Shown: positions 5,062 to 25,332 of the stretch, one piece after another | Layout: every line of letters starts with the position of its first letter | How positions within the stretch are numbered: position 1 is the first letter of the stretch | Source of the DNA: a phage | Sequence record: PZ445551.1 | Strand: one strand, 5' to 3' | Length of the DNA: 64,000 nt | Program-made: the position numbers and the translations under genes | Notes under the pieces: generated by a model | What the model was told of the DNA's origin: nothing | Database searches by the model: none | Seen by the model: only the letters and a program-made list of their open reading frames with translations

Positions 5062-5226
5062 TTAGCGTACAAAGTTAACTTCTGCTTCTTTCAGCTTTGA
5101 CACTTCTACATAACCACCATGATCATCTTTAATCCATTCTTTTCCTTTACGGATGATAACAGGATATGTAGAGTGAGTAAGTTTAGGTACAGATCTTTTT
5201 GTTTTAGTGATAGAAATGTTTTGCAT
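5062..5226 (-). CDS. hypothetical small protein (about 54 aa)
   Basis: Not in ORF track; ATG preceded by strong SD AAGGAGAC on minus strand; coordinates approximate. Confidence 0.4.
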   Translation of the reverse strand: MQNISITKTKRSVPKLTHSTYPVIIRKGKEWIKDDHGGYVEVSKLKEAEVNFVR

Positions 5227-5286
5227 AGTAGTCTCCTTAGTAAATTTTACATAGAGTCTAGATTATTTAGTAGATAGAGTCAATAA

Positions 5287-5553: not shown

Positions 5554-5600
5554 AGTATTCTCCTATACAGTAATATACTCTGTTCCTGCCCCTCCATGAG

Positions 5601-5690
5601 TGACAGGAACAATATCTATAGAGAATACTAACTCGCTTCGCTCGTCACCTTTCAGGTTTAGGGTAGCATGTTTTTCTGAAAAAGTCAATA
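5601..5690. repeat. conserved noncoding element, copy 1
   Basis: CTCGCTTCGCTCG...TTAGGGTAGCATGTTTTTCTGAAAAAGTCAA in intergenic gap of leftward block. Confidence 0.55.
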
Positions 5691-5717
5691 CTCTCCACAA
5701 AACTTTACAAAATACTT

Positions 5718-5990
5718 TTACATAGGTACAACAGAGTCTGTTTTGAAGTCGTACATATGATTTACACCTGTGATTTTTGACATAGAGATTGCACGTTTAG
5801 CACCTGCAATTACCTGGTCTGTCTTCTTAATCTCTTTACGGAACTTACGTACAGTTAAAGAGAAGAAACGATGATCCATCCATTGACGATTCACACGATC
5901 ACGCTTGAAGTGACGGAAATCTTCAATCTGTTTATTGCGCAATCGGCGCAGTACATGCAATAGTTGATAGTAAGGGTGTTTATTTTTCAT
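5718..5990 (-). CDS. hypothetical basic protein (90 aa)
   Basis: ORF in same-strand block; Arg/Lys rich. Confidence 0.5.
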   Translation of the reverse strand: MKNKHPYYQLLHVLRRLRNKQIEDFRHFKRDRVNRQWMDHRFFSLTVRKFRKEIKKTDQVIAGAKRAISMSKITGVNHMYDFKTDSVVPM

Positions 5991-5993
5991 AAT

Positions 5994-6422
5994 TTATTCT
6001 CCAAATCGAAAATCGTCAATATCATCAAACCATACACAATGGCGAGTCCTTTCTTTTTCTGTTGCAGACATTGTTTCAACAGCTTTAGGACTAAGTACAA
6101 CAGGAATGTAACGAACAGGTCGTTCATAATAGTAGCCATACTTTTCTGTATTAGCTGCCTCAAAGACTTTACGGCGTTCTTCAAGATCTTCTATGGTGAA
6201 TCCTACCATATAACCATCATGTTTGCTACCCCATCCTTCCTCACTTTCAACAATCGGGATATAAAAGCCGTTACGCGTCCCTGACGCTGGTTCTTCTTGA
6301 GCCTGAAGGCAAGCCTCCCATCCTGCTTTAAAGACGTTATAGAGCGATTTACGCACGTTATGAGTGCCGCTTTCGCTTGCTGGATAGAGTTCATTAAACT
6401 TGTCTTGGATTTGTTGTGTCAT
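5994..6422 (-). CDS. hypothetical protein (142 aa)
   Basis: ORF in same-strand block. Confidence 0.55.
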   Translation of the reverse strand: MTQQIQDKFNELYPASESGTHNVRKSLYNVFKAGWEACLQAQEEPASGTRNGFYIPIVESEEGWGSKHDGYMVGFTIEDLEERRKVFEAANTEKYGYYYERPVRYIPVVLSPKAVETMSATEKERTRHCVWFDDIDDFRFGE

Positions 6423-6565
6423 ACTCGCCCCTTAGTGATTATTTGACCAGCTAAACAAATAGCTTGTAGTACAATAAAGAAGTAGCCTAATTTTACACTA
6501 CCCAATACCCAGAATGCAATGTTTGCAAACAAACAAAAAGCAATATTAAGTCTAAAGAATAACAT
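6419..6565 (-). CDS. small hydrophobic peptide (about 48 aa)
   Basis: Not in ORF track; hydrophobic sequence, ATGA overlap with downstream gene; approximate coordinates. Confidence 0.3.
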   Translation of the reverse strand: MLFFRLNIAFCLFANIAFWVLGSVKLGYFFIVLQAICLAGQIITKGRV

Positions 6566-6766
6566 TTAATCCCCTTCATATTTAGGTAAAGGCATATATG
6601 CCACAATGGGAGGGTAATCAAAGTGAAAATGATGGTTCACCACAATAATCTTACCAGACATACTTTTATGCACTTCACAATACCCTTTTCCACCATCTTC
6701 CATTACCACCACATACTCACCTAGTGGGATATCGTATGGGTCTTCTACTTTCACCCATTCTGTCAT
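6566..6766 (-). CDS. hypothetical protein (66 aa)
   Basis: Start refined to MTEWVKV with SD GAGGAG; ATGA overlap with upstream small ORF. Confidence 0.5.
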   Translation of the reverse strand: MTEWVKVEDPYDIPLGEYVVVMEDGGKGYCEVHKSMSGKIIVVNHHFHFDYPPIVAYMPLPKYEGD

Positions 6767-6918
6767 TTTGTAAACTCCTCGTAGTAAGGTAAAGCCTTGA
6801 TTAGTTGTTCTGAAGTGCCATTTTGCACCCACGTAACACCATTGTCAACAGAAACATACCCTTTTTTGTCAATAAATTTACGCAGACAGCCAGTGAACTT
6901 ATTTTTGTAGATAGCCAT
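6763..6918 (-). CDS. hypothetical small protein (about 51 aa)
   Basis: Not in ORF track; SD AAGGAG upstream of ATG; approximate coordinates. Confidence 0.4.
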   Translation of the reverse strand: MAIYKNKFTGCLRKFIDKKGYVSVDNGVTWVQNGTSEQLIKALPYYEEFTK

Positions 6919-6930
6919 GTTTACTCCTTG

Positions 6931-7284
6931 TTACATCCACAGATTATGAAAATACTTAGCAAACAAAATACGACCTTCTAAACGATCTTGCCGCTGTTTT
7001 TCATTAACTTCTTCTGGTGGAGTTGAGTCCTTAAAAGAAGACTCCATTTTTTCAAGAATTTCTAACCAGTGTTCTGCTGCTCGTTCTTCCATATAAGGTA
7101 GATAGTCACCTTTAGCGTGTGGGTACATCCGACGAAGTAACCCACTAGGAATTTTAACATTGTTTGTGGCTATCACTTTTGCACGATACGCAGAAAGTGC
7201 ATTGTAGATCAGTTTACTTAGTGTCACATCCAGATCAAGAAGATCACTCTCTTCAAATTGAATTTCATCGTGTACAATTTTCAT
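6931..7284 (-). CDS. hypothetical protein (117 aa)
   Basis: ORF in same-strand block. Confidence 0.55.
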   Translation of the reverse strand: MKIVHDEIQFEESDLLDLDVTLSKLIYNALSAYRAKVIATNNVKIPSGLLRRMYPHAKGDYLPYMEERAAEHWLEILEKMESSFKDSTPPEEVNEKQRQDRLEGRILFAKYFHNLWM

Positions 7285-7568
7285 CGTGCCTTCTCCCGAT
7301 CTGCATCTAATTTCAACAAGAAAGCTGTATACTCTTCCGAACCTTGGTGTAAAAACATGTGATAAGAGCTTACCAGTTTCTTCGTTGTTGTATAACGTTC
7401 CATTTCCCCAACAACACCTCCACCTAGTGTGTAGAGCACAATACCTTCAACTCCAACATAGGTTACTACTTCAACCAAGTCTGTGTTATCCCAATAGTAG
7501 TTAGGTGACACAATAAGATCGCCCACTGCCAGTTTAATGTTTGCTACTTCGTCTTGTGAATAATACAT
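7281..7568 (-). CDS. hypothetical protein (95 aa)
   Basis: ORF in same-strand block; ATGA overlap. Confidence 0.55.
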   Translation of the reverse strand: MYYSQDEVANIKLAVGDLIVSPNYYWDNTDLVEVVTYVGVEGIVLYTLGGGVVGEMERYTTTKKLVSSYHMFLHQGSEEYTAFLLKLDADREKAR

Positions 7569-7580
7569 TTGGTTCTCCTC

Positions 7581-7871
7581 TCACATTAAGACACGTTTTG
7601 TGTTGATGGGTGCATTATCAAACATGTTTATCACTTTGTCAAGTTTGTGTATTAACTCGTTCGTAATGTTCCACTCTTTGTATGATCTCCATTGTTTCTT
7701 ATTCTCACCTACCTGGTGTAAAACTTTGATTGGTGCATTCAAACGTACATTGCGTTCTTTGTCCTCTTCAAAAGAGGCTAACCATTTTTCGTTATGTCCA
7801 TGAACAGCAATAATAATGCCAAAACCATCAAAAGTTTCTGTAATATTCTTAGTTGCTAGTGTGATGTTCAT
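7581..7871 (-). CDS. hypothetical protein (96 aa)
   Basis: First gene of leftward block next to divergent promoter region. Confidence 0.55.
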   Translation of the reverse strand: MNITLATKNITETFDGFGIIIAVHGHNEKWLASFEEDKERNVRLNAPIKVLHQVGENKKQWRSYKEWNITNELIHKLDKVINMFDNAPINTKRVLM

Positions 7872-7929
7872 ATCTAACCTCTTTTGTTACGATACACACA
7901 GAGTACCAGAAATTAATTTCAGATCAAGT

Positions 7930-7958
7930 ATTGACATACTGTTTTATTGTGCTAATCT
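7930..7958 (+). promoter_or_regulatory. sigma70-like promoter for rightward block
   Basis: TTGACA, about 17 nt spacer, TAATCT; followed by SD GAGAGGAG and ATG at 7991. Confidence 0.45.
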
Positions 7959-7990
7959 TAATGCATACACAAATGAGAGGAGATAAACGA

Positions 7991-8542
7991 ATGCAAAACA
8001 CCGATCTGACTTGGATAGAAGCCAAAGAAGCAATGTTAAAAGGCAAACGCGTTAAACATAAATACTTTTGCGAAGGAGAATGGTTTGAAATGCGTAACCG
8101 ATCCCTTGTAGATGAAAAAGGGAATGACATGCAACAATGGTTCAAAAATGAAATTTGGCAGGGAACAGGTTGGTCTGTAGTTGAAGAGCAGCCTAGCTCA
8201 AGCGCACTGTTTAGCCCTATTATGTATCGCGTTATCGGTGCTTTAGTTGTTGATCACAGGATTGCAGTGGAAAAAGAATGCTGGGAAGAGGTATCTTTTT
8301 TCAACCTGGCTTCTTATGCAAAAAGCCATATGCACTTGTTTGAAGAAGGGGATGAATTTGTTCTTCGTATGCGCTATGGCAAAGAATTCAGATTATCACT
8401 TGATAATGATGTAGACACTGTTGTAAAATGGTTAGCAGAGCATTACGCTTACGATGCAATTTGTGGTCGCAGCTTCGGCAACGAACGCTGGGACATGATT
8501 TGTGAAAAATATGATTTTGAGCCGGAGTACGGAGTTTTATAA
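7991..8542 (+). CDS. hypothetical protein with DUF2829-like N-terminal domain
   Basis: N-terminus LTWIEAKEAMLKGKRVKHKYF..GEW resembles the DUF2829 pattern as recalled; start refined to ATG at 7991. Confidence 0.5.
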   Translation: MQNTDLTWIEAKEAMLKGKRVKHKYFCEGEWFEMRNRSLVDEKGNDMQQWFKNEIWQGTGWSVVEEQPSSSALFSPIMYRVIGALVVDHRIAVEKECWEEVSFFNLASYAKSHMHLFEEGDEFVLRMRYGKEFRLSLDNDVDTVVKWLAEHYAYDAICGRSFGNERWDMICEKYDFEPEYGVL

Positions 8543-8793
8543 TGTTAAGTATCAAACCTAAAATGATAACAGAAGACGAAGCAGACTTTATTTTCAAATG
8601 TGGACGTGTATGGAGAGAATTCACAAAAGGAAATGAAGTGGTGGTTGTTGTTGAACACAAGATATCTATTCAGGATCTGTTTGGACAATATGTTGATGTT
8701 ATTAAATTAGGTATTGACAAGGGTTTAGTTGAGGTGTTAACATTAGATCAAGTTGAAGCAGAGCACCTCAATAAAGTAGTGGTTGAATTTTAA
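8542..8793 (+). CDS. hypothetical protein (83 aa)
   Basis: ORF with TAATG coupling to upstream gene. Confidence 0.5.
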   Translation: MLSIKPKMITEDEADFIFKCGRVWREFTKGNEVVVVVEHKISIQDLFGQYVDVIKLGIDKGLVEVLTLDQVEAEHLNKVVVEF

Positions 8794-8813
8794 AATACAG
8801 ACGGGAGAAAGGT

Positions 8814-8987
8814 ATGAGTTTCTTTGTTACAGTATTTATGGCTATCTGGATTGTAGTCTCACTCGTTCTTTTCCTGGTGGGTTGTCTGGAAGAGATTAAG
8901 AAAGCGGTTATTTGCGGTTTCTTTGGCTTTATTATCTCTCCTGCCTGGATGTGGTTCTTCATTATTATTGGTTTCCTTAAAAGGTAA
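8814..8987 (+). CDS. small membrane protein (about 57 aa)
   Basis: Not in ORF track; two hydrophobic helices; SD GGGAGAAAGG upstream. Confidence 0.4.
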   Translation: MSFFVTVFMAIWIVVSLVLFLVGCLEEIKKAVICGFFGFIISPAWMWFFIIIGFLKR

Positions 8988-9001
8988 GTGAGGAATAAAG
9001 A

Positions 9002-9439
9002 ATGAGTAAAACAAACGCAATCGCAGATAAAGCAACTGATGTACTTCTGAACATGGTTAACGTCACTATTCAAACAATGAGTGATGTTGTAGAGTTTGGA
9101 AAACAACAAATTCCAGAAGTAATTCATCAATTATTAGTGTGGAAAGCAGTATCCGCAGGTTTATGGCAACTTTTTAGTATTTGCTTTATGTTTATTACTT
9201 TTATTGCTGTGCGGAACCTCGTAAAAGCAATTAAAGATAAAGAATGCCTGTGGTCACGAGATCGCTATGGTGAAGTATCTGCTTTACCTATTGTTGGCCT
9301 TGTTGTCTGTGCTTTCTTTTTCTTTTTAGGATTTGTTATTTTCTTTTCGAATTTTGATTGGCTAAAAATCATTATTGCACCAAAAGTGTATCTGATTGAA
9401 TTTGCTGCTGATTTAATTCGTTCATCTCAACAAAAATAA
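9002..9439 (+). CDS. membrane protein (145 aa)
   Basis: Multiple hydrophobic helices; SD GTGAGGAA upstream. Confidence 0.55.
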   Translation: MSKTNAIADKATDVLLNMVNVTIQTMSDVVEFGKQQIPEVIHQLLVWKAVSAGLWQLFSICFMFITFIAVRNLVKAIKDKECLWSRDRYGEVSALPIVGLVVCAFFFFLGFVIFFSNFDWLKIIIAPKVYLIEFAADLIRSSQQK

Positions 9440-9451
9440 AAGGGGTTTAAA

Positions 9452-10579
9452 ATGAAATACACGATTTATGGTGATATTGTAAGTGTAAATAAAGATATGG
9501 GCGTGGAATCTAACTATCTTCCACCAGGATTCTATACTGTTAGTCGTGATCCCCTTGGCAATTATTTTTTAAGCCGTGGTAATCTGACAGGTGTACCGGA
9601 TGTTTTGTATGGTGAAACAGAAAAACGAGCAAATCACGTTATCCGTACATTCCATCGCCGGAGTGCACAAGGTAAAAACACAGGCTTGCTTCTGACAGGA
9701 ACTAAGGGCAGTGGTAAAACTATGTTAGCCAAACTCATTAGTCGTGACCTTGTAGAAGAAGGTATTCCAACTATTATGGTTACTCAAGCCTATAGTGATG
9801 CTAATTTCATTGAACTTATTAGCAAGATCACCGACAAAGCAGTGATTATTTTTGACGAGTTTGATAAAGTATATGAGAAGAAACAAGATCAAGAAGCACT
9901 TCTCACTTTGTTAGATGGTACTGGCAGTGGTAATAAACTGTTTATTCTGACTAAAAACAGTGGTTTTATCTCTGAATTCTTTTTAAATCGTCCTAGTCGT
10001 GTGTTTTATAATTTTAATTATGATAAAATCTCACTAGAAACTATGATTGACTATTTAGATAAAAACCTGGATAACAAAGCACACTTTGATAATTTCCAAA
10101 GACTTTGGGATGTAAGTTTAGAGTTGTCCTTTGATGTGATCCAAGGTATAGTAGAAGAACTTAATTTCTACCCTGATTTATCCTTTAAAGAATGTATCTC
10201 TATGATGGGCGTTTCTTTAGGTGGTGGTAATAAATGGGATATCAGCAGTGTTGTTATTAATGGGAAACTTCAGAAAGTTAGCTGGGTATCTAGTTGGCAT
10301 AACTTTACACCTGCAATCTTTTTAGGTGGCTCGTGCACACTAGACGTGTACTTGTCATCTCCAAGTGATGCAGACTCTAAAGAAGCCCTTGCTAATAGCT
10401 CTTACGTGGTTTTTGATGATGAAGGAGATGCTCGAATTCCATTGAATGCGACAAAAATGAAAGCAGATCTTATTACAGGCGGTAAAATCGTTGTGTTTAG
10501 TGATGATCCAGAAGATTCTTTCCGTATTGTTCTGGAACCAACTATCACCAATGGTGCAACTTTGGCAAGTGTGTTTTAA
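9452..10579 (+). CDS. AAA+ family ATPase
   Basis: Walker A GTKGSGKT, Walker B IIFDEFDK. Confidence 0.75.
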   Translation: MKYTIYGDIVSVNKDMGVESNYLPPGFYTVSRDPLGNYFLSRGNLTGVPDVLYGETEKRANHVIRTFHRRSAQGKNTGLLLTGTKGSGKTMLAKLISRDLVEEGIPTIMVTQAYSDANFIELISKITDKAVIIFDEFDKVYEKKQDQEALLTLLDGTGSGNKLFILTKNSGFISEFFLNRPSRVFYNFNYDKISLETMIDYLDKNLDNKAHFDNFQRLWDVSLELSFDVIQGIVEELNFYPDLSFKECISMMGVSLGGGNKWDISSVVINGKLQKVSWVSSWHNFTPAIFLGGSCTLDVYLSSPSDADSKEALANSSYVVFDDEGDARIPLNATKMKADLITGGKIVVFSDDPEDSFRIVLEPTITNGATLASVF

Positions 10580-10595
10580 GTAAGCCAGCAAATAA

Positions 10596-10618
10596 AAACC
10601 CGCTCCGGCGGGTTTTCT
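10596..10618 (+). terminator. rho-independent terminator
   Basis: Hairpin ACCCGCTCCGGCGGGT followed by TTTTCTTG. Confidence 0.6.
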
Positions 10619-10653
10619 TGTATTGATACCAGATTTAATAAGAGGAGTAATAG

Positions 10654-11826
10654 ATGACAGCACCAAAATCATGGGAACAATATAAAGAAGAATTAACACC
10701 CCTTGCTAAAAATCACAATATTCAAATCCTGGGTTATGTTGGTGAATGGAAAGGGAACAAGACTAAACTTAAGCTATCTTGCCCTAAACATGGAGAGTGG
10801 AACACCACGAACATTAATGATTTTAAGAAGGGACGTGGTTGTCCTATCTGTTCTGGTAAGAAGCCGTTAACATGGGAAACAGAATTGCCGATCTTGGAAG
10901 AGATAGCACAGAAGAGGGGGTATCAGGTGTTAGGGTACGTGGGAGAATGGAAAGGGAATAAAACAAAACTTGATTTGTTGTGTCATTGTGGTAATAAATG
11001 GGATACTACAAGTATTAACAATTTTAAACGTGGTAGCGGTTGTCCACAATGTAAGAGGGAGAGACAAACAATGTCCGACGATCAACATATTGCAGATTTC
11101 TTTTCTACAGGGGAATTTAAGGAAGGCACTATCTTCACCAATACAGGGAAACGTAACAAGCGTGATGCAGTATGGATGGTTGAGTGTCCTGTTTGCTCCC
11201 ATGATGAATATGTTCAAGCAGGTGTTTGTGATGGTAAATTTTACTCTGCAGGACATAACCTTAAACAAGGGTATATTCCGTGTCGTTGTGGGAACTATCA
11301 GTATACAGAAGACCAGATCACCTATAGGGTAAAAAAGGAAGTAGAAGGGAAAGGGTATGTCTGGGTAGATTGGATTACCAAACCCTCTTCTATAGGTAAG
11401 TTTAAATATCTTTGTCTTGTGCATGGTGAGCAGATAGGGAGTGCTCGTAATTTATTAAGCCTCGGTCAAGGTTGTCCACAGTGTGCTGGTCATAATCAAC
11501 AGCAATTATATATTAATATTGTTAAAGATAATGATATTATAGTTGCCCTTAAGTTTGGTATATCTAAAGATAGCGATAGACGATTAAACGGTCAAAATAG
11601 CCGTAATCTGTTTTTTATGGAGCGTATTTGTTTATATGATTTTAGCACAGTGAAACAATGTAGGGCTGCTGAAAGAGCTATAAAGAAAAAATTAAAAACT
11701 GGTATTTTAACGGCAAGAGAGTTGAAAGATGGTTATACAGAAACAGTAAGTGTTTCTGATTTGGAAAATCTTCAAAAAATTATTACACAATATGGTGGCA
11801 AATTAGTATACAGTAAGGAGATGTAA
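10654..11826 (+). CDS. zinc-ribbon repeat protein with C-terminal T5orf172/GIY-YIG-like domain (putative nuclease)
   Basis: Four repeats of a CxxC/H..GCPxC unit (e.g. GCPICSGKK, GCPQCKRER, GCPQCAGHN); C-terminus LYINIVKDNDIIVALKFGISKDSDRRL resembles T5orf172 as recalled. Confidence 0.55.
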   Translation: MTAPKSWEQYKEELTPLAKNHNIQILGYVGEWKGNKTKLKLSCPKHGEWNTTNINDFKKGRGCPICSGKKPLTWETELPILEEIAQKRGYQVLGYVGEWKGNKTKLDLLCHCGNKWDTTSINNFKRGSGCPQCKRERQTMSDDQHIADFFSTGEFKEGTIFTNTGKRNKRDAVWMVECPVCSHDEYVQAGVCDGKFYSAGHNLKQGYIPCRCGNYQYTEDQITYRVKKEVEGKGYVWVDWITKPSSIGKFKYLCLVHGEQIGSARNLLSLGQGCPQCAGHNQQQLYINIVKDNDIIVALKFGISKDSDRRLNGQNSRNLFFMERICLYDFSTVKQCRAAERAIKKKLKTGILTARELKDGYTETVSVSDLENLQKIITQYGGKLVYSKEM

Positions 11827-12378
11827 ATGCGGATTACTGATAAGTATGTGTTCTTCTTCTCGGCAAAAGATGAATTTAGCAACTGGTATCTATCATCTTT
11901 TATTGAACCTTTAGCTCCCAAGTATAATAATTCTATTACAAGTTCTGTTGAATTTACTTGTGTGGAACAATATATGATGTGGAGAAAAGCATGTTTGTTT
12001 TATGATTACAACATTGCATCTTCTATTTTAACCGGAGATCTAAGATATACAGGAGAAAAAGAACAAGCATATTATAAGCGACTAGGCAGATTAGTTAAAG
12101 ATTATGATGAAGATACCTGGACTTCTTTACGGGAGAAGATTGTCAAACGTGGTTTGTATCTTAAATACACACAAAATGAAGATCTCAAAAATAAACTTAT
12201 AGCCTACGCAGATAAGGAGTTCGTAGAGGCAAGCCCTTATGATTCTATTTATGGTATCAAAATGGGGATGTGGGATCGGGACGTGGAAAATAAGGATTGT
12301 TGGAAAGGACAAAATCTTTTAGGAAAATGGCATACAGACCTTGCTGTTTATCTAAAAGCACAATCTGATATTTCCTGA
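11827..12378 (+). CDS. NADAR (YbiA-like) domain protein
   Basis: DEFSNWYLSSF, FTCVEQYMMWRKA, and C-terminal D..WG....NLLGK match NADAR signature regions. Confidence 0.75.
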   Translation: MRITDKYVFFFSAKDEFSNWYLSSFIEPLAPKYNNSITSSVEFTCVEQYMMWRKACLFYDYNIASSILTGDLRYTGEKEQAYYKRLGRLVKDYDEDTWTSLREKIVKRGLYLKYTQNEDLKNKLIAYADKEFVEASPYDSIYGIKMGMWDRDVENKDCWKGQNLLGKWHTDLAVYLKAQSDIS

Positions 12379-12595
12379 TATTTTGAAAATTTTTATTTTT
12401 ATAAAAAGGGGTGTGGGTTTCATGTACGGAAATTCACCCTCTGCACAGTATATCCAGAGTAAGTAGTATTCTATACCCTGTTAATAAAGTATTTAATTTG
12501 TTTGTTGGACTATGGTATCTGATCTTTAAAAGGCATACTATCTCTTAACTACTACTTATAACAGAACAGTAAAATCATTTTTATAAAAAGTACAA

Positions 12596-12795
12596 AATTA
12601 TTTAAAGTTTTTACAGATTTTTGGGTACAAATTTTGAAAATGAAAAGTTCAAGTTTGGTCAAAATTATTTAAAGTTTTTGTACGTATTTCTATTCAGATT
12701 TTGAAAATGAAAACTTCAATTTTTTAAAAATTCCCCAGTTTATTTAAAGTTTTTTTGCCTTTTTCCGTAGAAAAATCAAAAATGAAAAGTTCAAT
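12596..12795. repeat. three tandem direct repeats of about 65 bp
   Basis: Each unit has TATTTAAAGTTTTT, a variable segment, then TTTTGAAAATGAAAAGTTCAA. Confidence 0.7.
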
Positions 12796-12816
12796 TTCGT
12801 GTTTTTATAGGTGTGT

Positions 12817-12930
12817 TAATGAGAATCATTTTCGTTTGTAAATGAGAATCATTATCATTTAACTATGTAAGTGATAATCATTCTCAGTAAGAGAATGAGA
12901 ATCCTTAGCAAATGAGAATTTTCTCATTTA
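12817..12930. promoter_or_regulatory. cluster of five Fur-box-like palindromic sites
   Basis: AATGAGAATCATTATCATT, GTGATAATCATTCTC, AATGAGAATTTTCTCATT and related; near-matches to GATAATGATAATCATTATC. Confidence 0.45.
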
Positions 12931-13044
12931 GAGAATAACGCGCAGGGGTGGTGTTTGTCTCGCGCTCCCGTGTCCCCTCGCCATACAATAAGAATAGCAT
13001 AACCAACAACAAAAGCAAGCGATTATTTTTATCTTTACATTTCT

Positions 13045-13458
13045 TTACAAATTTATTTTAGACGAGCTACCGGCGATCAACCTTCCAACCAGTGCCCCCT
13101 GGTATGTTAGCCCCGCCTTTACGCCGTGGGGGTGGCGCTTCCTCTTCTGTATGTAAAACAGTATAAGCCCGATCCCTGGGCTTGTCAAGATTATTTTTTG
13201 TTTTCTTGCCAGGATAGGACACCTAACCAAAAATACATGTCGCCCCGCGCCCCCTGGTGGGATCTTGCTTTCCCCGCCGCCACTGCAAGCCCATAGATAA
13301 CCATTTGCGAACGTATCAAAATGATCTATTTCTTCCACCTTATGATCGCCCAGGTTGAGAACGGTTTCAACCTTTAAGCCCGTTGCGCTTGCTACCTGGT
13401 GCACCGTGCCGCCTTGCCAGCCTAATGAGTGCATGAGGTGTGAAGTAGTATTTGTCAT
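13045..13458 (-). CDS. hypothetical protein on opposite strand in GC-rich island (137 aa)
   Basis: Only long ORF in the island; minus-strand TTGCTA-N17-TATTAT promoter-like element upstream; could be a chance ORF. Confidence 0.4.
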   Translation of the reverse strand: MTNTTSHLMHSLGWQGGTVHQVASATGLKVETVLNLGDHKVEEIDHFDTFANGYLWACSGGGESKIPPGGAGRHVFLVRCPILARKQKIILTSPGIGLILFYIQKRKRHPHGVKAGLTYQGALVGRLIAGSSSKINL

Positions 13459-13725
13459 GGTATCGCCCTTTCTTTGATGTGTGCCCTGGTTGGCGCGGTA
13501 GAAAGATAATAGCCCTTTCCTTTATAGATAGCAAGCAAAAAAGAAATGAAAAAAAGATTAAAAAAGGGGTTGACGTTCCTCACCTGGTAGCGTATTATTC
13601 ATCTTGTCGAGGGGGGCGAGGCACAACGACAATAAACAAAAGGAGGGCGCAATGTAGGACGGGCAAAGGTGAGGATCTCCACAATCCACCGTCACAATAA
13701 CATTACTTATAAAAGGTTGATAACG

Positions 13726-13821
13726 ATGATCAAGAAAGAAAACAGCTTGACGGTTGGAACGATTAACGCTATCATTTTCGCCGTTCCATTTTGGGTTGTA
13801 GTAGCGGTTATTATCTTTTAA
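13726..13821 (+). CDS. small hydrophobic peptide (about 31 aa)
   Basis: Not in ORF track; downstream of TTGACG-N17-TATTAT promoter-like element; weak. Confidence 0.25.
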   Translation: MIKKENSLTVGTINAIIFAVPFWVVVAVIIF

Positions 13822-13829
13822 AAATATTC

Positions 13830-13887
13830 TTGACAACGTTTTTTAATCTGATAAGATGTATCACATAGGGCGGCAATAGTGCCGCTC
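13830..13887 (+). promoter_or_regulatory. promoter + 5' stem-loop cassette
   Basis: TTGACA, 16 nt, TAAGAT; hairpin GGGCGGCAATAGTGCCGCTC begins a few nt after -10. Confidence 0.6.
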
Positions 13888-13909
13888 ATAACAGAAGAGA
13901 GAAATAATC

Positions 13910-14182
13910 ATGGCATCATATAGCGCATCAATGATCGTAACGGGCATCACTGGTAAACCTATGCGCGGTGGCGGATCTTTCGCTAACATCAATATTGATG
14001 GGCGTTTATCCCTGGACGCAGCGATCACAGTGGCACGGGAAACGTTTAAAAAAGAATGTAATTTCAATAAACAAGATTATCTCGGTTTCGCTATTGAAAA
14101 AACCGCGCGCTTTGTTGATTATAAAAGCCCGAAAATGGTTGATACTACACTAAAAGCGCAAGATGTAGCATTTTTGCTTTAA
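13910..14182 (+). CDS. hypothetical protein (90 aa)
   Basis: ORF after promoter/stem-loop cassette and SD. Confidence 0.55.
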   Translation: MASYSASMIVTGITGKPMRGGGSFANINIDGRLSLDAAITVARETFKKECNFNKQDYLGFAIEKTARFVDYKSPKMVDTTLKAQDVAFLL

Positions 14183-14185
14183 GGC

Positions 14186-14245
14186 TTGACACTGAAAAAT
14201 AATTTGGTAATATATACTACATAGGGCGGGGAAATGGTTTCCCGC
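14186..14245 (+). promoter_or_regulatory. promoter + 5' stem-loop cassette
   Basis: TTGACA, 16 nt, TAATAT; hairpin GGCGGGGAAATGGTTTCCCGCC. Confidence 0.6.
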
Positions 14246-14268
14246 CAAATCAAAGAAAGGGTAACACA

Positions 14269-14631
14269 ATGAGCAAGCAAATCAATACTATCATGTTAAA
14301 CCTGGTATCTTTCCGCGATGACGTGAAAAATCTTTCGCGTGATGCAGTGGATGCACGGATCGAAAGCTATCGCTCACAGATCGCAACATTACCGCTAAAA
14401 CGTGATCAACATGCCGCTAATATGATGCTTAATGCTATGCTTAAAAAGATGATTCAATGTGATCTTACCCTGGCTTATGAATATGCTGGCGATCTCTTTG
14501 TAACATACAATAAGCCCGTTCCAGGTATGAGCACAACCGAAGAATTGCATGCCTTAAATCTGCGACAAGATGCATGGGATAATATGCGCCGCGTTATGGT
14601 ATGGGTAGAAAGCGGCAAAATTTACGCATAA
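14269..14631 (+). CDS. hypothetical protein (120 aa)
   Basis: ORF after promoter/stem-loop cassette. Confidence 0.55.
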   Translation: MSKQINTIMLNLVSFRDDVKNLSRDAVDARIESYRSQIATLPLKRDQHAANMMLNAMLKKMIQCDLTLAYEYAGDLFVTYNKPVPGMSTTEELHALNLRQDAWDNMRRVMVWVESGKIYA

Positions 14632-14635
14632 AGGC

Positions 14636-14689
14636 TTTACATTACACGAAAACCTGATAAGCTATCTTAAAGCGGGAATAGTTCCCGCT
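14636..14689 (+). promoter_or_regulatory. promoter-like element + 5' stem-loop
   Basis: TTTACA with weak -10; hairpin GCGGGAATAGTTCCCGC. Confidence 0.4.
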
Positions 14690-14707
14690 TTCATAGGATA
14701 AAACTTT

Positions 14708-14854
14708 ATGAAACAATATGTAATGAGTATTCACACCAAAAACGGCGCTACTGTTACGACTCCGGCACGGTTTGCACTTGTAAACCGTTGCAAGAGACTA
14801 AAACGAGAGTTAAAAAATAACCGTGCAACGGGCTTTAAACGCTGGGGAGGATAA
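14708..14854 (+). CDS. small basic protein (about 48 aa)
   Basis: Not in ORF track; ATG after stem-loop; approximate coordinates. Confidence 0.4.
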   Translation: MKQYVMSIHTKNGATVTTPARFALVNRCKRLKRELKNNRATGFKRWGG

Positions 14855-14856
14855 TC

Positions 14857-15117
14857 TTGTTTTTTCTAAAAGTTTTTGATAATGTGATCGCTTTTGAACA
14901 TGCTACAACGTTCGACCTAGCGAGATACGCTATCAGGTTTAAAGATAATGTTTATCCCCGTGCTGGAGGCGGTTACACTATTTTTAATCATCGTAACGCT
15001 CAATTAACGGATATAACTAATCCAGATCCTGGAGTGTATCGCATAGGCTGGCTACCGTCAAAAGACGCGGCAAGCATGTTTAAGGTGTGTAAACTACTAA
15101 CAGAAGAGGCAAATTAG
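14857..15117 (+). CDS. hypothetical protein (86 aa), probable TTG start
   Basis: SD GGGGAGGA 7 nt upstream of TTG; no in-frame ATG near start. Confidence 0.45.
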   Translation: MFFLKVFDNVIAFEHATTFDLARYAIRFKDNVYPRAGGGYTIFNHRNAQLTDITNPDPGVYRIGWLPSKDAASMFKVCKLLTEEAN

Positions 15118-15118
15118 C

Positions 15119-15664
15119 ATGGGGCGTGAGTATGTGATCCAGTCCTGGGTAAAGCATGACGCTAATGATCCGCGCATAATACCAGATGACATGATCGATC
15201 ACATGGTAGGGTATAGCGGGGAGCAGATAGGAAATCGAGCGGCAAAGAGCAACGGCAACACAAAGGCGCGATCCGTTCGCCCTGGTTGGCTGGCAAATGG
15301 TAACGCTGACATTGCAAGCGCCGCAGATCCAAGCGATGACGCTAAAAATAATCCCTTATACAGCATTGATCCGGCTTTTAAGGTGTTAGAAGAGTATCCC
15401 GCTAAATTAGCCGCACTAGATAAGGCATACGAAGAAAAGCGCATGGCATGGACGGTATACAACACCGCTAAAATGGTGCTAGATGCAAAATTGATTAAAG
15501 CCCAGGAGAAGATCAATAAACTTGTTGCAGTAGCGCAAGAGGAAGACCAGGAGGAAGAGGAAGAAATCATGCCTACCCTGGAAGAGGAAGAGATCCAGCC
15601 ATACATGCCGACGGAAGAGGAAAAAAGACAAGCCCTAAAAAATTATGAAAATTGCATTGTGTAA
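15119..15664 (+). CDS. hypothetical protein with highly acidic C-terminus (181 aa)
   Basis: C-terminal QEEDQEEEEEIMPTLEEEEIQPYMPTEEE tract. Confidence 0.55.
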   Translation: MGREYVIQSWVKHDANDPRIIPDDMIDHMVGYSGEQIGNRAAKSNGNTKARSVRPGWLANGNADIASAADPSDDAKNNPLYSIDPAFKVLEEYPAKLAALDKAYEEKRMAWTVYNTAKMVLDAKLIKAQEKINKLVAVAQEEDQEEEEEIMPTLEEEEIQPYMPTEEEKRQALKNYENCIV

Positions 15665-15667
15665 GGC

Positions 15668-15725
15668 TTGACATATGCAAACAAGCCCCGTAATATGTAC
15701 CACATAAAGCGGGGCAACGCCCCAT
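15668..15725 (+). promoter_or_regulatory. promoter + 5' stem-loop cassette
   Basis: TTGACA, 17 nt, TAATAT; hairpin GGGGCAACGCCCC. Confidence 0.55.
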
Positions 15726-15745
15726 AAGGTGAAATAAAAAATCAC

Positions 15746-15773
15746 TTGACACCTGAAATCAGTAAGCTATAAT
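15746..15773 (+). promoter_or_regulatory. second tandem sigma70-like promoter
   Basis: TTGACA, 16 nt, TATAAT directly upstream of small ORF at 15811. Confidence 0.5.
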
Positions 15774-15810
15774 GCTTATATAGATTGAAACATTACTAAG
15801 GAATAAAAGC

Positions 15811-15990
15811 ATGGCTATTATTGCAAAAACTGAGATCGTAGGTTTAGATTCTATCATCCTGGCATATGAGGAAGCTATAGAAATGTATGTAGTGACCTAT
15901 GGTGATTATGTGCGTGAATACGAATACATTGATCTTGCTTTCGAATGTTACATTCGCCAGGTCAATAAAGCCTATGATGATTATCGTTAA
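15811..15990 (+). CDS. small acidic protein (about 59 aa)
   Basis: Not in ORF track; ATG after SD AAGGAATAAAAGC. Confidence 0.4.
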   Translation: MAIIAKTEIVGLDSIILAYEEAIEMYVVTYGDYVREYEYIDLAFECYIRQVNKAYDDYR

Positions 15991-16085
15991 AAGTTTTAGT
16001 CTTGTGCTATTGACAACGAACGATAGTACAAGCATAATAACTTTTATCGGGAATACTCCTAACTAATCAAAAGAGATTAAAGACT

Positions 16086-16451
16086 ATGGCTAAAAATATC
16101 AATGTTTCTGCTTATGCTACCCTGGCTAACACTGCTAAAATTGAACTATCCAGCATTGAAGCGGTACATATTAGCGCCCGTCGCTGGTTTCAAAAGTCTT
16201 ATGGTAATACTTATTTCTCTTTGATGGTTGACGTTGAGATCGGCGGTAAACTGATTGAAGTCGTTAACGTTCCGTTTCACTATGGCTACGGGGATCATTT
16301 TGATACCGTTGCCCTAGAAGAGTTTAGCAAGGTTGTCAACCTGGAAGGTAAAGAGTTTTCAAATTATGCCTACCTTTCCCGTTTTTGCCGTGATAATGGG
16401 ATCGCTGTATACAGTCATGCAAGCGATGTTAAACGTAAAAAAGATTTATAA
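16086..16451 (+). CDS. hypothetical protein (121 aa)
   Basis: ORF with SD AAAGAGATTAAAGACT. Confidence 0.55.
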   Translation: MAKNINVSAYATLANTAKIELSSIEAVHISARRWFQKSYGNTYFSLMVDVEIGGKLIEVVNVPFHYGYGDHFDTVALEEFSKVVNLEGKEFSNYAYLSRFCRDNGIAVYSHASDVKRKKDL

Positions 16452-16957: not shown

Positions 16958-17185
16958 ATGGCTATCGTTATTGTTCGCGTATCCGGCACGGTTGGAATCT
17001 CCCAGGTAGTAGCAGTTATCACCGAGAAGAAAGGGGATGATCTTCACTCTTCCTTGAATAGCTGGGCGGTCGCTAACTTCGGGCAATGGTCGAGCGTTGA
17101 GTACATCGAATCCTACCAGGTGCCAACGATTAGCCTAACCGATCTAAATGTTGATCGCTTGTTGTGCCTGGATCAATTAAACTAA
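16958..17185 (+). CDS. hypothetical protein (75 aa)
   Basis: ORF after promoter/stem-loop cassette. Confidence 0.55.
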   Translation: MAIVIVRVSGTVGISQVVAVITEKKGDDLHSSLNSWAVANFGQWSSVEYIESYQVPTISLTDLNVDRLLCLDQLN

Positions 17186-17192
17186 AAATAAT

Positions 17193-17251
17193 ATTGACAA
17201 GATAACTAAAATCAGTAAAATGTAATGCATAGGGCGGCAATAGTGCCGCTC
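17193..17251 (+). promoter_or_regulatory. promoter + 5' stem-loop cassette
   Basis: TTGACA, 16 nt, TAAAAT; hairpin GGGCGGCAATAGTGCCGCTC. Confidence 0.6.
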
Positions 17252-17272
17252 CTAGTGAGAGAGATTATCAAG

Positions 17273-20430: not shown

Positions 20431-20488
20431 TTGACACTAGGCAAACAACGTAGTAAAGTTTATCACATAGGGCGGCAATAGTGCCGCT
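20431..20488 (+). promoter_or_regulatory. promoter + 5' stem-loop cassette
   Basis: TTGACA with TAAAGT-like -10; hairpin GGGCGGCAATAGTGCCGCTC. Confidence 0.55.
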
Positions 20489-20510
20489 CATAACAGAAGA
20501 GAAACAAATC

Positions 20511-20681
20511 ATGATCCCGACTATGTTTTATGTATCGCGCAAAGGTCACAATATTTTTTGGTCTGAAGATTTAAATGAAGCTATGACGTTTGCCCGTGAT
20601 CGTGTCGCTATCGGTGGCGTTAACATCACTGTAACCGATGAAAACGGCATTGAATACTATAACGGCGACGATGAAGAGTAA
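20511..20681 (+). CDS. hypothetical protein (56 aa)
   Basis: Start refined to MIPTMFYV downstream of stem-loop. Confidence 0.5.
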   Translation: MIPTMFYVSRKGHNIFWSEDLNEAMTFARDRVAIGGVNITVTDENGIEYYNGDDEE

Positions 20682-20725: not shown

Positions 20726-20863
20726 ATGAAAACTTTCAACGCAACAGCCTCGACAATTGGTTATATTATTACAGTGCAAGCCGTTGACCTGGTAGCGGCA
20801 GCAAACAAGATTAAAAAGATGATCCCAACAGGCAGCGAATTTTCCGTTTGGGAAGTAAAATAA
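20726..20863 (+). CDS. small protein (about 45 aa)
   Basis: Not in ORF track; preceded by palindrome GGCGGGATTAATCCCGCC and SD-like AAGGGTAA. Confidence 0.4.
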   Translation: MKTFNATASTIGYIITVQAVDLVAAANKIKKMIPTGSEFSVWEVK

Positions 20864-20865
20864 AT

Positions 20866-20924
20866 CTTGACAATAGTTTATTACTTGATAGAATGTATTT
20901 CGTAGGGCGGCAATAGTGCCGCTC
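20866..20924 (+). promoter_or_regulatory. promoter + 5' stem-loop cassette
   Basis: TTGACA, 16 nt, TAGAAT; hairpin GGGCGGCAATAGTGCCGCTC. Confidence 0.6.
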
Positions 20925-20945
20925 ACAACTAAAAGAGAAATCATC

Positions 20946-21140
20946 ATGGCGCTTAAAAAATTAACAAGCAATACTCGTTGGGATGAAATCGACGGGGAAG
21001 TATACATTTTCGCCCGTAAACCAGGTGATCAAAAATGGTCAAAGGCTTTTACTTGCCACCCTGCAACAATAGATCTAATAAAAAGTAAAGGTTTACGTGA
21101 AGCAGTAGCGAGAAGTTTACTGATCCCTTATAAAAAATAG
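20946..21140 (+). CDS. hypothetical protein (64 aa)
   Basis: Start refined to MALKKLTS downstream of stem-loop. Confidence 0.5.
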   Translation: MALKKLTSNTRWDEIDGEVYIFARKPGDQKWSKAFTCHPATIDLIKSKGLREAVARSLLIPYKK

Positions 21141-21141
21141 T

Positions 21142-21203
21142 TTGACAATATGCTGTTATCTGGTAAAGTGTACGACATAGGGCGGGGCAATAAGGCAACG
21201 CCC
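21142..21203 (+). promoter_or_regulatory. promoter + variant 5' stem-loop
   Basis: TTGACA with TAAAGT-like -10; GC-rich imperfect hairpin GGGCGGGGCAATAAGGCAACGCCC. Confidence 0.45.
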
Positions 21204-23187: not shown

Positions 23188-23571
23188 ATGAGCAATATCA
23201 GCAACCTGGCGGCTACTGTAAACGGTAAAGATTTTAACGGCGCTGTAGATCGTGATCCTATGTGGTGCTTATCAGTGTTTAAAGGCGATCTGGTTGAAGT
23301 TAGAACAACCGAAGGGTATAGCGATGATTATAAATGCGAGATCCATTTACACAACTGGTACACGGGTAAAACTTATGCGCTGAATCATGCGTTTATCGGC
23401 AAGGTTGAATATAGAGAAATGATCGACGAAGAAACGGGGCAAGATTTTAGCGAGCATGTTTATATTCGTTCCGAGACATTAGCCGAACGTTTGATCGAGA
23501 AAATGAAAGCAAAAAATAAAATTAATTTATCTCATTGGATTGATATAACAAACGATCCAGCTTATCAGTAA
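23188..23571 (+). CDS. hypothetical protein (127 aa)
   Basis: ORF with SD AACGAGGAATCACC. Confidence 0.55.
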   Translation: MSNISNLAATVNGKDFNGAVDRDPMWCLSVFKGDLVEVRTTEGYSDDYKCEIHLHNWYTGKTYALNHAFIGKVEYREMIDEETGQDFSEHVYIRSETLAERLIEKMKAKNKINLSHWIDITNDPAYQ

Positions 23572-23585
23572 ATAACATTTCATAC

Positions 23586-23615
23586 CAGGGCGCACAAAGC
23601 GCCCTTTCTTTTTAC
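23586..23615 (+). terminator. rho-independent terminator
   Basis: Hairpin GGGCGCACAAAGCGCCC followed by TTTCTTTTT. Confidence 0.6.
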
Positions 23616-23817
23616 CTAAATAAAGATGATAGCTTTTACCTATCAAAAACGTTCACCGAAAAAAGTGAATAGATCGCGGTATCGAGCTAATCAAGGAGCA
23701 GATGAACAACCATACCATGAAGATCATAAGGCGCTTACAACGTGTTTTAGACCGCTTATTTTTAATTTCTCAATGTAACTATCTGGCAAAAACAGCCTTT
23801 TTCTTGTCTTTCCTCTT

Positions 23818-23895
23818 AAATGATAATCATTCTTATTTATAGCTGATTATTTATGCAATAAACTGAATAATGCAATAATGATAATCATTCTTAAC
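23818..23895. promoter_or_regulatory. two Fur-box-like sites
   Basis: AAATGATAATCATTCTTA and AATAATGATAATCATTCTTAAC. Confidence 0.45.
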
Positions 23896-24260
23896 TTATG
23901 ACCATCTAACCTATAAAATAATAAGTTATCTAACTAAATTAAAACTAATTATCTCACCTTTATTTATAACTTACTGTTACTATCTCATTGATAACCTTAT
24001 ATTAAACAACAATAACCAATATAAATCATTACTAAGCTAAATATAATCTATCTAACCTTTAAAACTATAACTATAATCTATCGAATTGTTGCACAAAGTA
24101 ACTATTAAATTGTTAGTAACATTACTAAATAATTAATATCCTATCTATTTATGATCTAATCTTTATCTTCCTATCTATTACCTAAATAATCATTTCATAC
24201 AGTAATCATTTCATACAATAATTATAACAAGAAATATAATTCGCAAGCGTATCATTAGCA

Positions 24261-24430
24261 GCCTATGCCGGACACATAGGCGGCTAATAATAACGCAACT
24301 ACACACCCCACATAATAACCATCACCGATAGTTATTATTTGTGCTTATGTAGCTTGCAACAATTGCAAGCGCAACAATATACATGGTATATTGTATCCCT
24401 TACATTGTTGCGGTGCGTTATTATTAGCTA
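24261..24430. repeat. nested palindromes flanked by perfect 15-bp inverted repeat
   Basis: GCTAATAATAACGCA ... TGCGTTATTATTAGC enclosing GCTTGCAACAATTGCAAGC and CAATATACATGGTATATTG; also GCCTATG..CATAGGC. Confidence 0.6.
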
Positions 24431-24757
24431 ATGTTTAGAACATTGGCTATAATATAAGCTAAGTAATAAGCTATGCAATAATAAACATGGTGAATAATGA
24501 CATTGATGATCATAATGCGCCACCTTCCAGGGGGCGCTATGTGAACACAAAGAAATCTTTCTTGTCAAGAAAAAATATTGCCATTATTGCGCAAAATTAT
24601 TTATATCTGAATAGATGATTTTTCATACTATTGCCCCATATAACATACCTCATTTGTTGAGCATAGTTATAGCCTATTTGTTGAGCCTACTTTCTTAAAA
24701 GCGCAATAAATCAGAATTATCTTGATTTTTAGTCTGTTTTATAGTATAGAAAGTATG

Positions 24758-24778
24758 CAAATGATAATCATTATCAGC
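24758..24778. promoter_or_regulatory. Fur-box-like site (best match)
   Basis: CAAATGATAATCATTATCAGC, about 17 of 19 matches to GATAATGATAATCATTATC. Confidence 0.45.
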
Positions 24779-24940
24779 TATCTTCCACGGGTAGCACTAT
24801 TTCACGCCAGATCATTTCATTTGGCAAGGTGTATATAGATGTTTAGACTTGCCAAGCCATTGATTTACTTAGAATTTATCTGTTTTGTTGTGAGTAGAGC
24901 CTTTCTTGCTCAGAAAATAATCAAAAGTCTTATAAGTCAT

Positions 24941-24977
24941 TGAATGATAATGCAAATGATAATTATTCTCATTGATA
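24941..24977. promoter_or_regulatory. Fur-box-like palindromic site
   Basis: TGAATGATAATGCAAATGATAATTATTCTCATTGATA. Confidence 0.4.
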
Positions 24978-25090
24978 TTTGAGGGGGACGGTCGGCAGAA
25001 ATCGGGGGGCGCTGAAAATCGCGTTAAGCACCTCTCGCAAGCGAGCAGTATTTTGCGGCAAGTTATTGATATTATTGGCTTTACGCTTAT

Positions 25091-25195
25091 GAAAAGGGGG
25101 TGTGTCGAAATAAATCGGGTATACCGGAAAATTTTTGTGGCATAGATATTTATTTGTCTATATTATGTACAAAAGGGTGTGTTAAAAATATTAGG
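25091..25195 (+). promoter_or_regulatory. two tandem copies of AAAAGGG(G)TGTGT-AAATA-GGTATA motif (candidate phage-specific promoter)
   Basis: GAAAAGGGGGTGTGTCGAAATAAATCGGGTATACC and CAAAAGGGTGTGTTAAAAATATTAGGTATATA, about 80 bp apart, upstream of cluster starting 25333. Confidence 0.35.
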
Positions 25196-25332
25196 TATAT
25201 ATAGAATAATTGATAGGGAAATCCTATACTAATTCCTCCATTAATGATGTTTCTATGTTACTGTTCTTGTAACAGATGAAAAGACGCTGTATGATGTGTG
25301 GCATGAAACGTAAATTTATAAAGGAGTCTGAT

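Follow-up and report, generated by a model that had tools for sequence, protein, structure and literature searches.

A conserved noncoding gap in phi92-like phages

We analysed a region without annotated genes in a 64,000-nt stretch of phage DNA (sequence record PZ445551.1), which is called the window here and whose first letter is position 1. This gap between coding sequences (CDSs) spans 23572–25332, from the end of a gp248-like CDS (23188–23571) to a CDS that starts at 25333 and is preceded by an AAGGAG Shine-Dalgarno sequence. An initial annotation had described it as 1.7 kb of AT-rich DNA with palindromes and a perfect inverted repeat, and had proposed a replication origin, a packaging site or a structured noncoding RNA (ncRNA). 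Our best explanation, held with moderate confidence, is that the gap combines the genome-end region of the phage, a probable terminase module, a separate folded element and predicted operators of the Fur type.

Both the lack of a credible open reading frame (ORF) and the AT-richness were borne out. The longest ORF within the gap has 57 aa, and the records of inny, phi92, phAPEC8, ukendt and ZCKP1 have no CDS annotated there; although the VivaForever record calls eight ORFs of 31–46 aa, most annotators call none. GC content is 0.31–0.35 in the gap vs ~0.37–0.40 in other parts of the window. A scan for tRNAs and tmRNA gave no match. Near the start of the gap, an intrinsic terminator on the plus strand (23587–23605; a 7-bp stem with six G-C pairs, then TTCTTTTT), kept in all relatives, closes the upstream plus-strand operon and forms the left edge of the noncoding region.

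The region is 100% identical to that of Escherichia phage VivaForever (PP925843.1; Justusliebigvirus, phi92-like) and 90–97% identical to those of ~60 further Justusliebigvirus genomes. A more sensitive search aligned Phapecoctavirus genomes (the phAPEC8 group) at ~60–72% identity, and the best-conserved piece also aligned with Citrobacter phage Tr1. Four records labelled 'Campylobacter phage' (MG065639, MG065645, MG065656 and MG065689) match the entire query at 95.5% identity; they probably represent Justusliebigvirus genomes that were mislabelled or entered as contaminants. A syntenic noncoding gap of ~1.5–1.8 kb is present in those genomes of Justusliebigvirus and Phapecoctavirus that were examined, and phage 4MG has an analogous one. 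Absence or lack of conservation in relatives, which the initial annotation had named as evidence against its reading, is thus not what we see: the gap is syntenic and contains invariant islands. For the same reason we give next to no credence to AT-rich junk or decaying DNA whose palindromes arose by chance. Low GC content and the absence of accepted ORFs would suit junk DNA, but a gap of similar size is kept in synteny across two genera, with invariant islands, compensatory base changes and fold z-scores below -7 (see below); this conservation and covariation already refute it.

By homology, the gap corresponds to the genome ends

Homology to relatives identifies the gap as the genome-end, or concatemer-junction, region of this phage, a virulent phi92-like myovirus of 146 kb. 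The phi92 record has a 343-bp direct terminal repeat annotated at 1–343 and 148270–148612; phi92 position 1 corresponds to 24684 of the window and the end of the phi92 record to 25026. A direct terminal repeat of 343 bp is accordingly assigned to 24684–25026 from this homology, present as a single copy in this collapsed assembly. As the assembly collapsed both copies of the repeat, the gap reads as one continuous piece, in which the relatives' reported ends mark 23572–24683 as the unique noncoding right end and 25027–25332 (plus strand) as the unique noncoding left-end leader ahead of the first gene. What weighs against this assignment is that the VivaForever repeat itself is placed by homology to relatives' ends only.

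Terminal repeats of this kind are already on record for relatives, so that the region belongs to a known kind in this respect. A 342-bp repeat has been reported for BME3, with packaging determined using PhageTerm; in the Schickermooser record (Phapecoctavirus) both ends share exactly 329 bp, and the paper on that phage gives 328 bp. The repeats of phi92, BME3 and Schickermooser (Stephanstirmvirinae; 343, 342 and 328–329 bp, against 343 bp here) are homologous, lie in noncoding DNA and have the same boundaries; homology and collinearity between the window sequence and the relatives' reported repeats extend to both boundaries. A further short direct terminal repeat in a noncoding setting is the 459-bp repeat of the rV5-like phage LL12.

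Comparison of the boundaries gave a cut motif at base resolution. The left boundary reads TGTTG^AGC (24679–24686, plus strand), with the cut inferred at 24683/24684, and consists of eight columns that are invariant across genera; five records (VEcB, PD114, W22, UAB_1 and phi92) start exactly there. A 24-nt tandem duplication creates a second GTTGAGC at 24656. The right boundary reads CGCGTTA^AGC, with a probable cut at 25026/25027. In Schickermooser, the left end begins with AGCAAG and is preceded by ...AATGTTG, and the right end reads ...CGCGTTA|AGC.... Both boundaries share a core and form invariant islands, identity in the rest of the alignment being ~60–65%. As the GTTRAGC core alone is not rare within the 64-kb window, the cut motif needs its context.

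In the searchable literature we found no description of how terminase recognizes and cuts the ends, or of where replication starts, in the phi92-like and rV5-like groups, phages in wide use as therapy candidates. Neither the cut motif nor the module, folded element and Fur-like boxes described below appeared in the literature searched, where the parts of the accounts that we consulted give the repeat length only.

A candidate terminase module is shared with islands in Escherichia coli

At the right cut, TCGCGTTAAGCA is invariant across the aligned phages. The surrounding stretch 24973–25052 (plus strand) is a candidate pac-like module for recognition and cutting by terminase, composed of TGATATTTG, ~45 nt, the cut motif CGCGTTA^AGC and ~25 nt. 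Searching 5,426 complete Escherichia coli (E. coli) genomes with window positions 24240–25060 as the query returned a 46-bp match of 95.7% identity to 25001–25046, centred on the right cut, in 411 of the 5,426 chromosomes. With the Phapecoctavirus-type junction as the query, 242 of the same 5,426 genomes had matches.

Three of these matches were inspected, and each lies in an island adjoining a gene for tRNA-Thr or tRNA-Leu (thrW or leuX). The islands are found at 2641–16264 of NZ_CP027548.1, 2706–15180 of NZ_CM132277.1 and ~5500–13400 of NZ_CP019953.1. Two are intact (12.5–13.5 kb) and encode a tyrosine integrase, a Phage_cap_E capsid protein, tape-measure-like and Dit-like proteins and regulators, one of them of the LexA family, with a DNA invertase gene directly preceding the copy of the cut module; the third, in E. 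coli M8, is degraded. The island of NZ_CP027548.1, the sole one scanned for repeats, contains five 22-bp iterons.

Similarity between islands and phages extends from TGATATTTG, ~55 nt to the left of the cut, to ~25 nt beyond it on the right. There are two island variants, and in both of them TGATATTTG is where the similarity starts. Over 80 nt, variant 1 matches the window at 65 positions and Schickermooser at 56, whereas variant 2 matches Schickermooser at 67 positions and the window at 49. The islands contain nothing else of the phage region, with no folded element, Fur-like box or left boundary found in them. Because they carry lineage-matched copies of the module and nothing else from the region, 24973–25052 is probably the terminase recognition and cut module of these phages. 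The packaging site proposed by the initial annotation is thus supported for the region, with its repeat, its cut sites at 24684–25026 and the probable module, but not at the palindromes, which lie 255–600 bp further left.

The simplest reading of these matches is that satellite-like islands copied the module. The islands combine an integrase with attachment at a tRNA gene, a replication module of their own and a copy of the candidate packaging site of a phage, and may represent an undescribed satellite family. They resemble P4, which carries the cos site of P2, and the phage-inducible chromosomal islands (PICIs) that carry cos or pac sites, in the integrase, the tRNA site, the short, near-identical copy of a cut site and the iterons of their own. 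Unlike for P4 and PICIs, the presumed helper is virulent, has a genome of 146 kb and ends in a terminal repeat; the islands also differ in encoding capsid, tape-measure-like and Dit-like proteins and, beside the site, a DNA invertase, and we could not assign them to any described satellite family. Against this reading it must be weighed that the islands carry one site rather than both boundaries, and that their capsid protein has no detectable similarity to Stephanstirmvirinae proteins. This capsid protein was also rejected as a link to the presumed helper, since it is at best ~24% identical to proteins of Pseudomonas myoviruses. Matches to the island version of the module in IMG/VR were likewise discarded as evidence of encapsidation, as their contig identifiers suggest proviruses in isolate genomes.

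If this reading is true, the islands would be undescribed satellites that parasitise virulent 146-kb myoviruses, each variant following its own helper genus. Such satellites could act as anti-phage or transducing elements, which would be relevant to therapy with these genera. What is gained in any case is a cut motif at base resolution and a candidate recognition module of ~80 bp; islands that carry the module only are a natural experiment and make the packaging signal directly testable.

A four-way junction left of the terminal repeat is under selection

The perfect 15-bp inverted repeat reported by the initial annotation is present, with its arms GCTAATAATAACGCA and TGCGTTATTATTAGC at 24283–24297 and 24414–24428 and 116 nt between them. 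These arms form helix P1, which closes a four-way junction of P2a/P2 (P2a, 24299–24303/24348–24352; P2, 24315–24323/24327–24335), P3 (24353–24359/24363–24369) and P4 (24371–24375/24407–24411), which contains an extra nested hairpin confined to Justusliebigvirus. Three palindromes lie inside P1: ATAACCATC..GATAGTTAT (24315–24335), GCTTGCAA..TTGCAAGC (24351–24369) and CAATATAC..GTATATTG (24376–24394), which is part of a longer helix. The palindrome GCCTATG..CATAGGC had been counted among the enclosed ones but lies just 5' of the repeat; it forms hairpin P0 (24261–24281), with a 7-bp stem and the conserved loop CCGGACA. The unpaired motifs CCGGACAC, CAACTACAC and CTTACAC hardly vary. The element lies 255 bp left of the terminal repeat here and 208–210 bp left of it in Phapecoctavirus.

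Folding of the 181-nt stretch was compared with that of dinucleotide shuffles. It gave z = -9.1 as DNA and, as RNA, z = -7.4 for the plus strand and -8.25 for the minus strand (-81.6 kcal/mol), and none of 200 shuffles folded as well. For the covariation analysis that the initial annotation had suggested, we retrieved homologues from phage records and metagenomes by searching for exact copies of the invariant P3 hairpin. With plain MAFFT alignment, pairing is kept in 95.1% of cells, and both partners have changed in 13 pairs. When 21 distinct sequences were aligned under guidance of the model, paired cells made up 97.7%, vs 21–48% when the partners are slid, and there were 14 pairs with both-side changes, a number equalled by none of 500 shuffles; RNAalifold recovers P0–P3 independently. 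Because paired cells and both-side changes exceed both the slid and the shuffled controls, intrastrand pairing of the element is under selection.

The helices differ in how they vary. P0 is 100% paired, with compensatory changes in three of its seven pairs (GC<->CG twice and UA->CG once). The stem sequence of P2 has been swapped outright in six lineages with the hairpin retained, giving the versions ATAACCATC, GAAACTATT, GTGACTATT, GCAACGATT and GGAATAATC. The outer 11 bp of P1 and the whole of P3 are nearly invariant. A covariance model finds a single copy per genome, scoring 162.5 bits for this phage; run on the window, on more distant relatives and on the E. coli islands, it found no extra copies. 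The exact P3 pattern was also run against 185,579 species-representative genomes; its one match, in a Melioribacter metagenome-assembled genome, was set aside as apparently due to chance.

A possible counterpart was seen in phage 4MG (Vequintavirinae), where a perfect 20-bp inverted repeat at 5432–5644 surrounds ~170 nt of hairpins (z = -8.0). Its place is the syntenic noncoding gap that follows the gp248 homologue, one of the enclosed hairpins is P3-like (TGCAACTATTGCA), and Fur-like boxes occur nearby at 5828 and 5978. The 4MG fold appears analogous to the folded element.

Candidate roles of the folded element

We infer that the element acts in cis and is separate from the packaging module. 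As the islands copy the cut module without the element and have iterons of their own, we rank a role in replication or priming first, an ncRNA second and an accessory to packaging third. The favoured role, proposed tentatively and short of an even chance, is that of a strand-specific folded-DNA signal for initiation or priming of replication. The element would act together with the adjoining 320-bp tract at 23895–24215, which is AT-rich and depleted of G on the plus strand (4% G, GC skew -0.62). In all ten sequences examined this tract has a skew of -0.23 to -0.62, and the flanking genes are positive; its composition is conserved while its sequence is poorly conserved, a pattern that favours replication.

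The minus strand may be the folded one. Among the non-Watson-Crick cells of the alignment, A.C on the plus strand, which is G.T or G.U on the minus strand, occurs at seven positions vs one position with G.T on the plus strand; together with the more stable fold of the minus strand, this hints at that strand.

Multi-hairpin folds of 150–200 nt that are strand-specific, act in cis, occur once per replicon and have conserved unpaired motifs are known from the G4 oric, the M13 minus-strand origin and the single-strand origins of rolling-circle plasmids. The element is like these in size, branched fold, conserved loops and the hint of strand specificity. There is no sequence match, and the known examples serve single-stranded replicons or displaced strands.

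The origin put forward by the initial annotation is compatible with the adjoining G-depleted tract and with the lack of the element in islands that have their own iterons. Several observations weigh against a start signal for replication. The strand bias rests on ~8 events (p ~0.04–0.07). No DnaA box (TTWTNCACA) lies in 23572–25332, all 11 matches in the window being elsewhere; GC skew along the window tracks gene orientation and does not turn at the region, and the ATTAGCA 'iterons' are short. A phage-specific promoter, moreover, could drive an RNA from the element and would escape our promoter searches, which were of the sigma-70 type.

Such an RNA is the next candidate, though an unlikely one: a structured ncRNA, probably from the minus strand and read leftward from the terminal-repeat side, acting on host or phage gene expression or priming through an R-loop in the downstream tract. 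It would account for the covariation of five helices, for the conserved unpaired motifs, for the minus-strand RNA folding best, for the seven-to-one excess of cells that are G.U on that strand, and for the tract to the left having G>C on the minus strand in all ten sequences. The signals expected around an RNA gene are lacking. Rfam 15 has no match in the window at the gathering score and no family match to the element even at E <= 10, where the best hit (E = 0.51) is an unrelated snoRNA model outside the element. A search of both flanks of the element in nine lineages found no sigma-70 promoter conserved in position on either strand. In a promoter and terminator scan of the region, promoter-like sites were no commoner than in shuffles, and neither strand has a terminator beyond the element, the sole one in the region being that at 23587–23605. 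Furthermore, P3 as a whole and the 11 outermost bp of P1 do not vary, which suits recognition of a duplex sequence equally well. Of the structured ncRNA put forward by the initial annotation, the structure is thus strongly supported by covariation, while an Rfam match, a position-conserved sigma-70 promoter and a terminator are missing.

A packaging role has to be considered from the comparison with T7 and T3. In these phages, a short non-permuted repeat is duplicated from a single-copy concatemer junction, which has pac sequences, and a hairpin-forming inverted repeat lies to its left; Chung et al. (1990) reportedly placed that of T7 ~190 bp left of the junction. The region studied here likewise has a short non-permuted repeat and an inverted repeat a few hundred base pairs left of the right-end repeat. 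It differs in having no sequence similarity to T7 or T3, in belonging to a 146-kb myovirus and in its covarying four-way junction in place of a simple palindrome; and we know of no phage RNA polymerase pause site for this phage, unlike T7 and T3. The palindrome cluster might by analogy be an accessory to packaging, either a T7-like hairpin at repeat duplication or a platform that binds the small terminase. That it keeps to a place 208–255 bp left of the repeat at the right end, whichever the genus, agrees with this, as do the 4MG analogue in a syntenic noncoding region and the hairpin intermediate in the T7 work cited. We nevertheless regard it as improbable, for the islands carry the cut module without the folded element, the fold is multi-branched with conserved loops, unlike a simple snap-back palindrome, and duplication by staggered nicks should need no single-stranded DNA 255 bp beyond the repeat.

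Returning to replication as the favoured role, the four-way junction would, if this is true, be a new strand-specific start signal made of folded DNA (or an RNA primer), with a diverged form in Vequintavirinae.

Fur-like boxes recur in and around the terminal repeat

Four conserved repeats that share the core AATGATAATCATT agree with the E. coli Fur box (GATAATGATAATCATTATC) at 14–17 of its 19 positions. Site A (23816–23834; 14/19) and site B (23874–23892; 16/19), 58 bp apart, both contain the core, and in Phapecoctavirus site A is retained as a conserved island (AATGATAACCATTATC). Site C, GCAAATGATAATCATTATC (24757–24775; 17/19), lies 73 bp inside the left repeat boundary and directly downstream of the invariant ATCTTGATTT; its Phapecoctavirus version is AAATAATAATCATTCTC. 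Cluster D (24946–24976), which the E. coli islands do not have, consists of overlapping matches of 14–15/19 starting at 24946, 24952 and 24958, thus spaced by 6 bp. Weak matches at 24493 and 24499 overlap in the same way, 6 bp apart. A 37-nt repeat (ATGNNNATGATNATCAT...GGGG) occurs at 24497–24533, 24755–24791 and 24950–24986, with 73–76% identity between copies and spacings of 258 and 195 bp; the second and third copies are inside the terminal repeat.

The region holds eight sites of at least 14/19, vs 0.39 expected under a first-order Markov model. Of the nine sites with at least 15/19 in the 64 kb, seven fall in the two noncoding regions of the window, the second of which is described below and has an array of its own, with AATGAGAATCATT boxes at 12810–12935 in noncoding DNA that is conserved in phAPEC8. 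The boxes of the gap are retained in Phapecoctavirus despite diverged flanks, and natural Fur clusters have been reported to contain overlapping sites spaced by 3 or 6 bp. From these features we predict that the AATGATAATCATT repeats are operators, bound either by host Fur or by a protein that binds like Fur. They are like E. coli Fur boxes in the 14–17 matching positions, the 6-bp overlaps and the clustering, and unlike them in lying in terminal and intergenic DNA of a virulent phage with no identified host-type promoter; we could assign no convincing promoter that overlaps the boxes. For virulent coliphages, we found Fur boxes reported nowhere in the literature searched.

Speaking against operators for Fur, some sites predicted from the consensus did not bind in published work, and a consensus match is no proof of binding. 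The boxes could instead be sites for a DNA-binding protein of the phage, such as the small terminase or an early regulator, and resemble Fur boxes by chance. We give this a substantial minority chance, as the boxes are embedded in longer, phage-specific 37-nt repeats, two of them are placed symmetrically in the terminal repeat, 73 and 50 bp from its ends, and false positives are known among consensus-based predictions. The closeness of the matches, the 6-bp overlaps as in natural clusters, the second array, the confinement of seven of the nine best sites to noncoding DNA and the retention of boxes across genera while flanks diverge all argue for Fur-type operators instead. If these are true operators, they would tie genome-end functions and the 12.9–13.7 kb locus to the iron status of the host, or titrate Fur during replication.

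The initial annotation thus described a real, non-random feature and named suitable kinds of function. As far as we searched, the cut motif with its ~80-bp module, the capture of the module by E. coli islands, the four-way junction and the Fur-like boxes are new. That a Stephanstirmvirinae terminase site pirated by satellites, a new fold for replication start and true Fur operators would all hold together is quite unlikely. The four-way junction and the boxes offer mutational targets for origin mapping and for studying iron-dependent control in a virulent coliphage.

Further features of the gap and of a second noncoding region

An ORF of 46 aa at 23702–23842 has a perfect AAGGAG upstream with a 3-nt spacer; it is intact in Justusliebigvirus, and Phapecoctavirus has ACG for its ATG start. 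The tandem repeats noted previously at ~24185–24217 were found at 24185–24222, as part of the G-depleted tract, in 2.4 copies of a 16-nt unit, TAATCATTTCATACAG; two copies of the unit are present here and in phi92, whereas inny and cardinal have three. In cardinal there is, in addition, a 36-nt insertion of TGAATAATGACAC-like units in the area of 24490–24500.

Within the terminal repeat, a segment of ~108 bp (24793–24900) is flanked by the imperfect inverted repeats GCACTATTTCAC and GTGAGTAGAGC. In AMO3598 (~1752–1860) the segment is inverted, its reverse complement aligning at 94 of 108 positions. This orientation was seen in two of 56 records, AMO3598 and pEC-M2929-1AR.1, both of 145,425 bp and probably one phage; with so few records in the other orientation, we rejected a general flip-flop switch. 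The IHF core WATCAANNNNTTR has 11 matches in the 64 kb, two of them here: one at 24853–24865, in the 108-bp segment of the repeat and within a block conserved across genera (GCCAARCCATTGAT), and one on the minus strand at 25059–25071, 33–45 nt beyond the right cut.

Conserved blocks of the leader (25027–25332) include GGGTGTGT motifs at 25097 and 25174 and GGTATATATAGAATAATTGATAGG at 25193–25216. A GGGGTGTGT-like motif occurs at 25097–25105 and 25174–25182, at 12408–12416 where the second noncoding region starts, and on the minus strand at 24301–24309, where it is complementary to CAACTACACACCCC, a conserved junction of the folded element; across the window, GGTGTGT as a 7-mer is not enriched.

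The second noncoding region (12380–13910; 1.5 kb) contains tandem repeats of ~60–70 nt at 12575–12797. A GC-richer stretch in it, at ~12910–13700, is 92–94% identical between Justusliebigvirus and Phapecoctavirus, far above its surroundings, and 77–80% identical in other phages such as Av-05; it has no Rfam match. Finally, an intergenic element of ~50–90 nt is present in at least five copies with 75–94% identity (13819–13910, 17183–17254, 20461–20511, 20856–20946 and 21133–21192), upstream of small plus-strand genes, and could be a phage promoter or a regulatory repeat.

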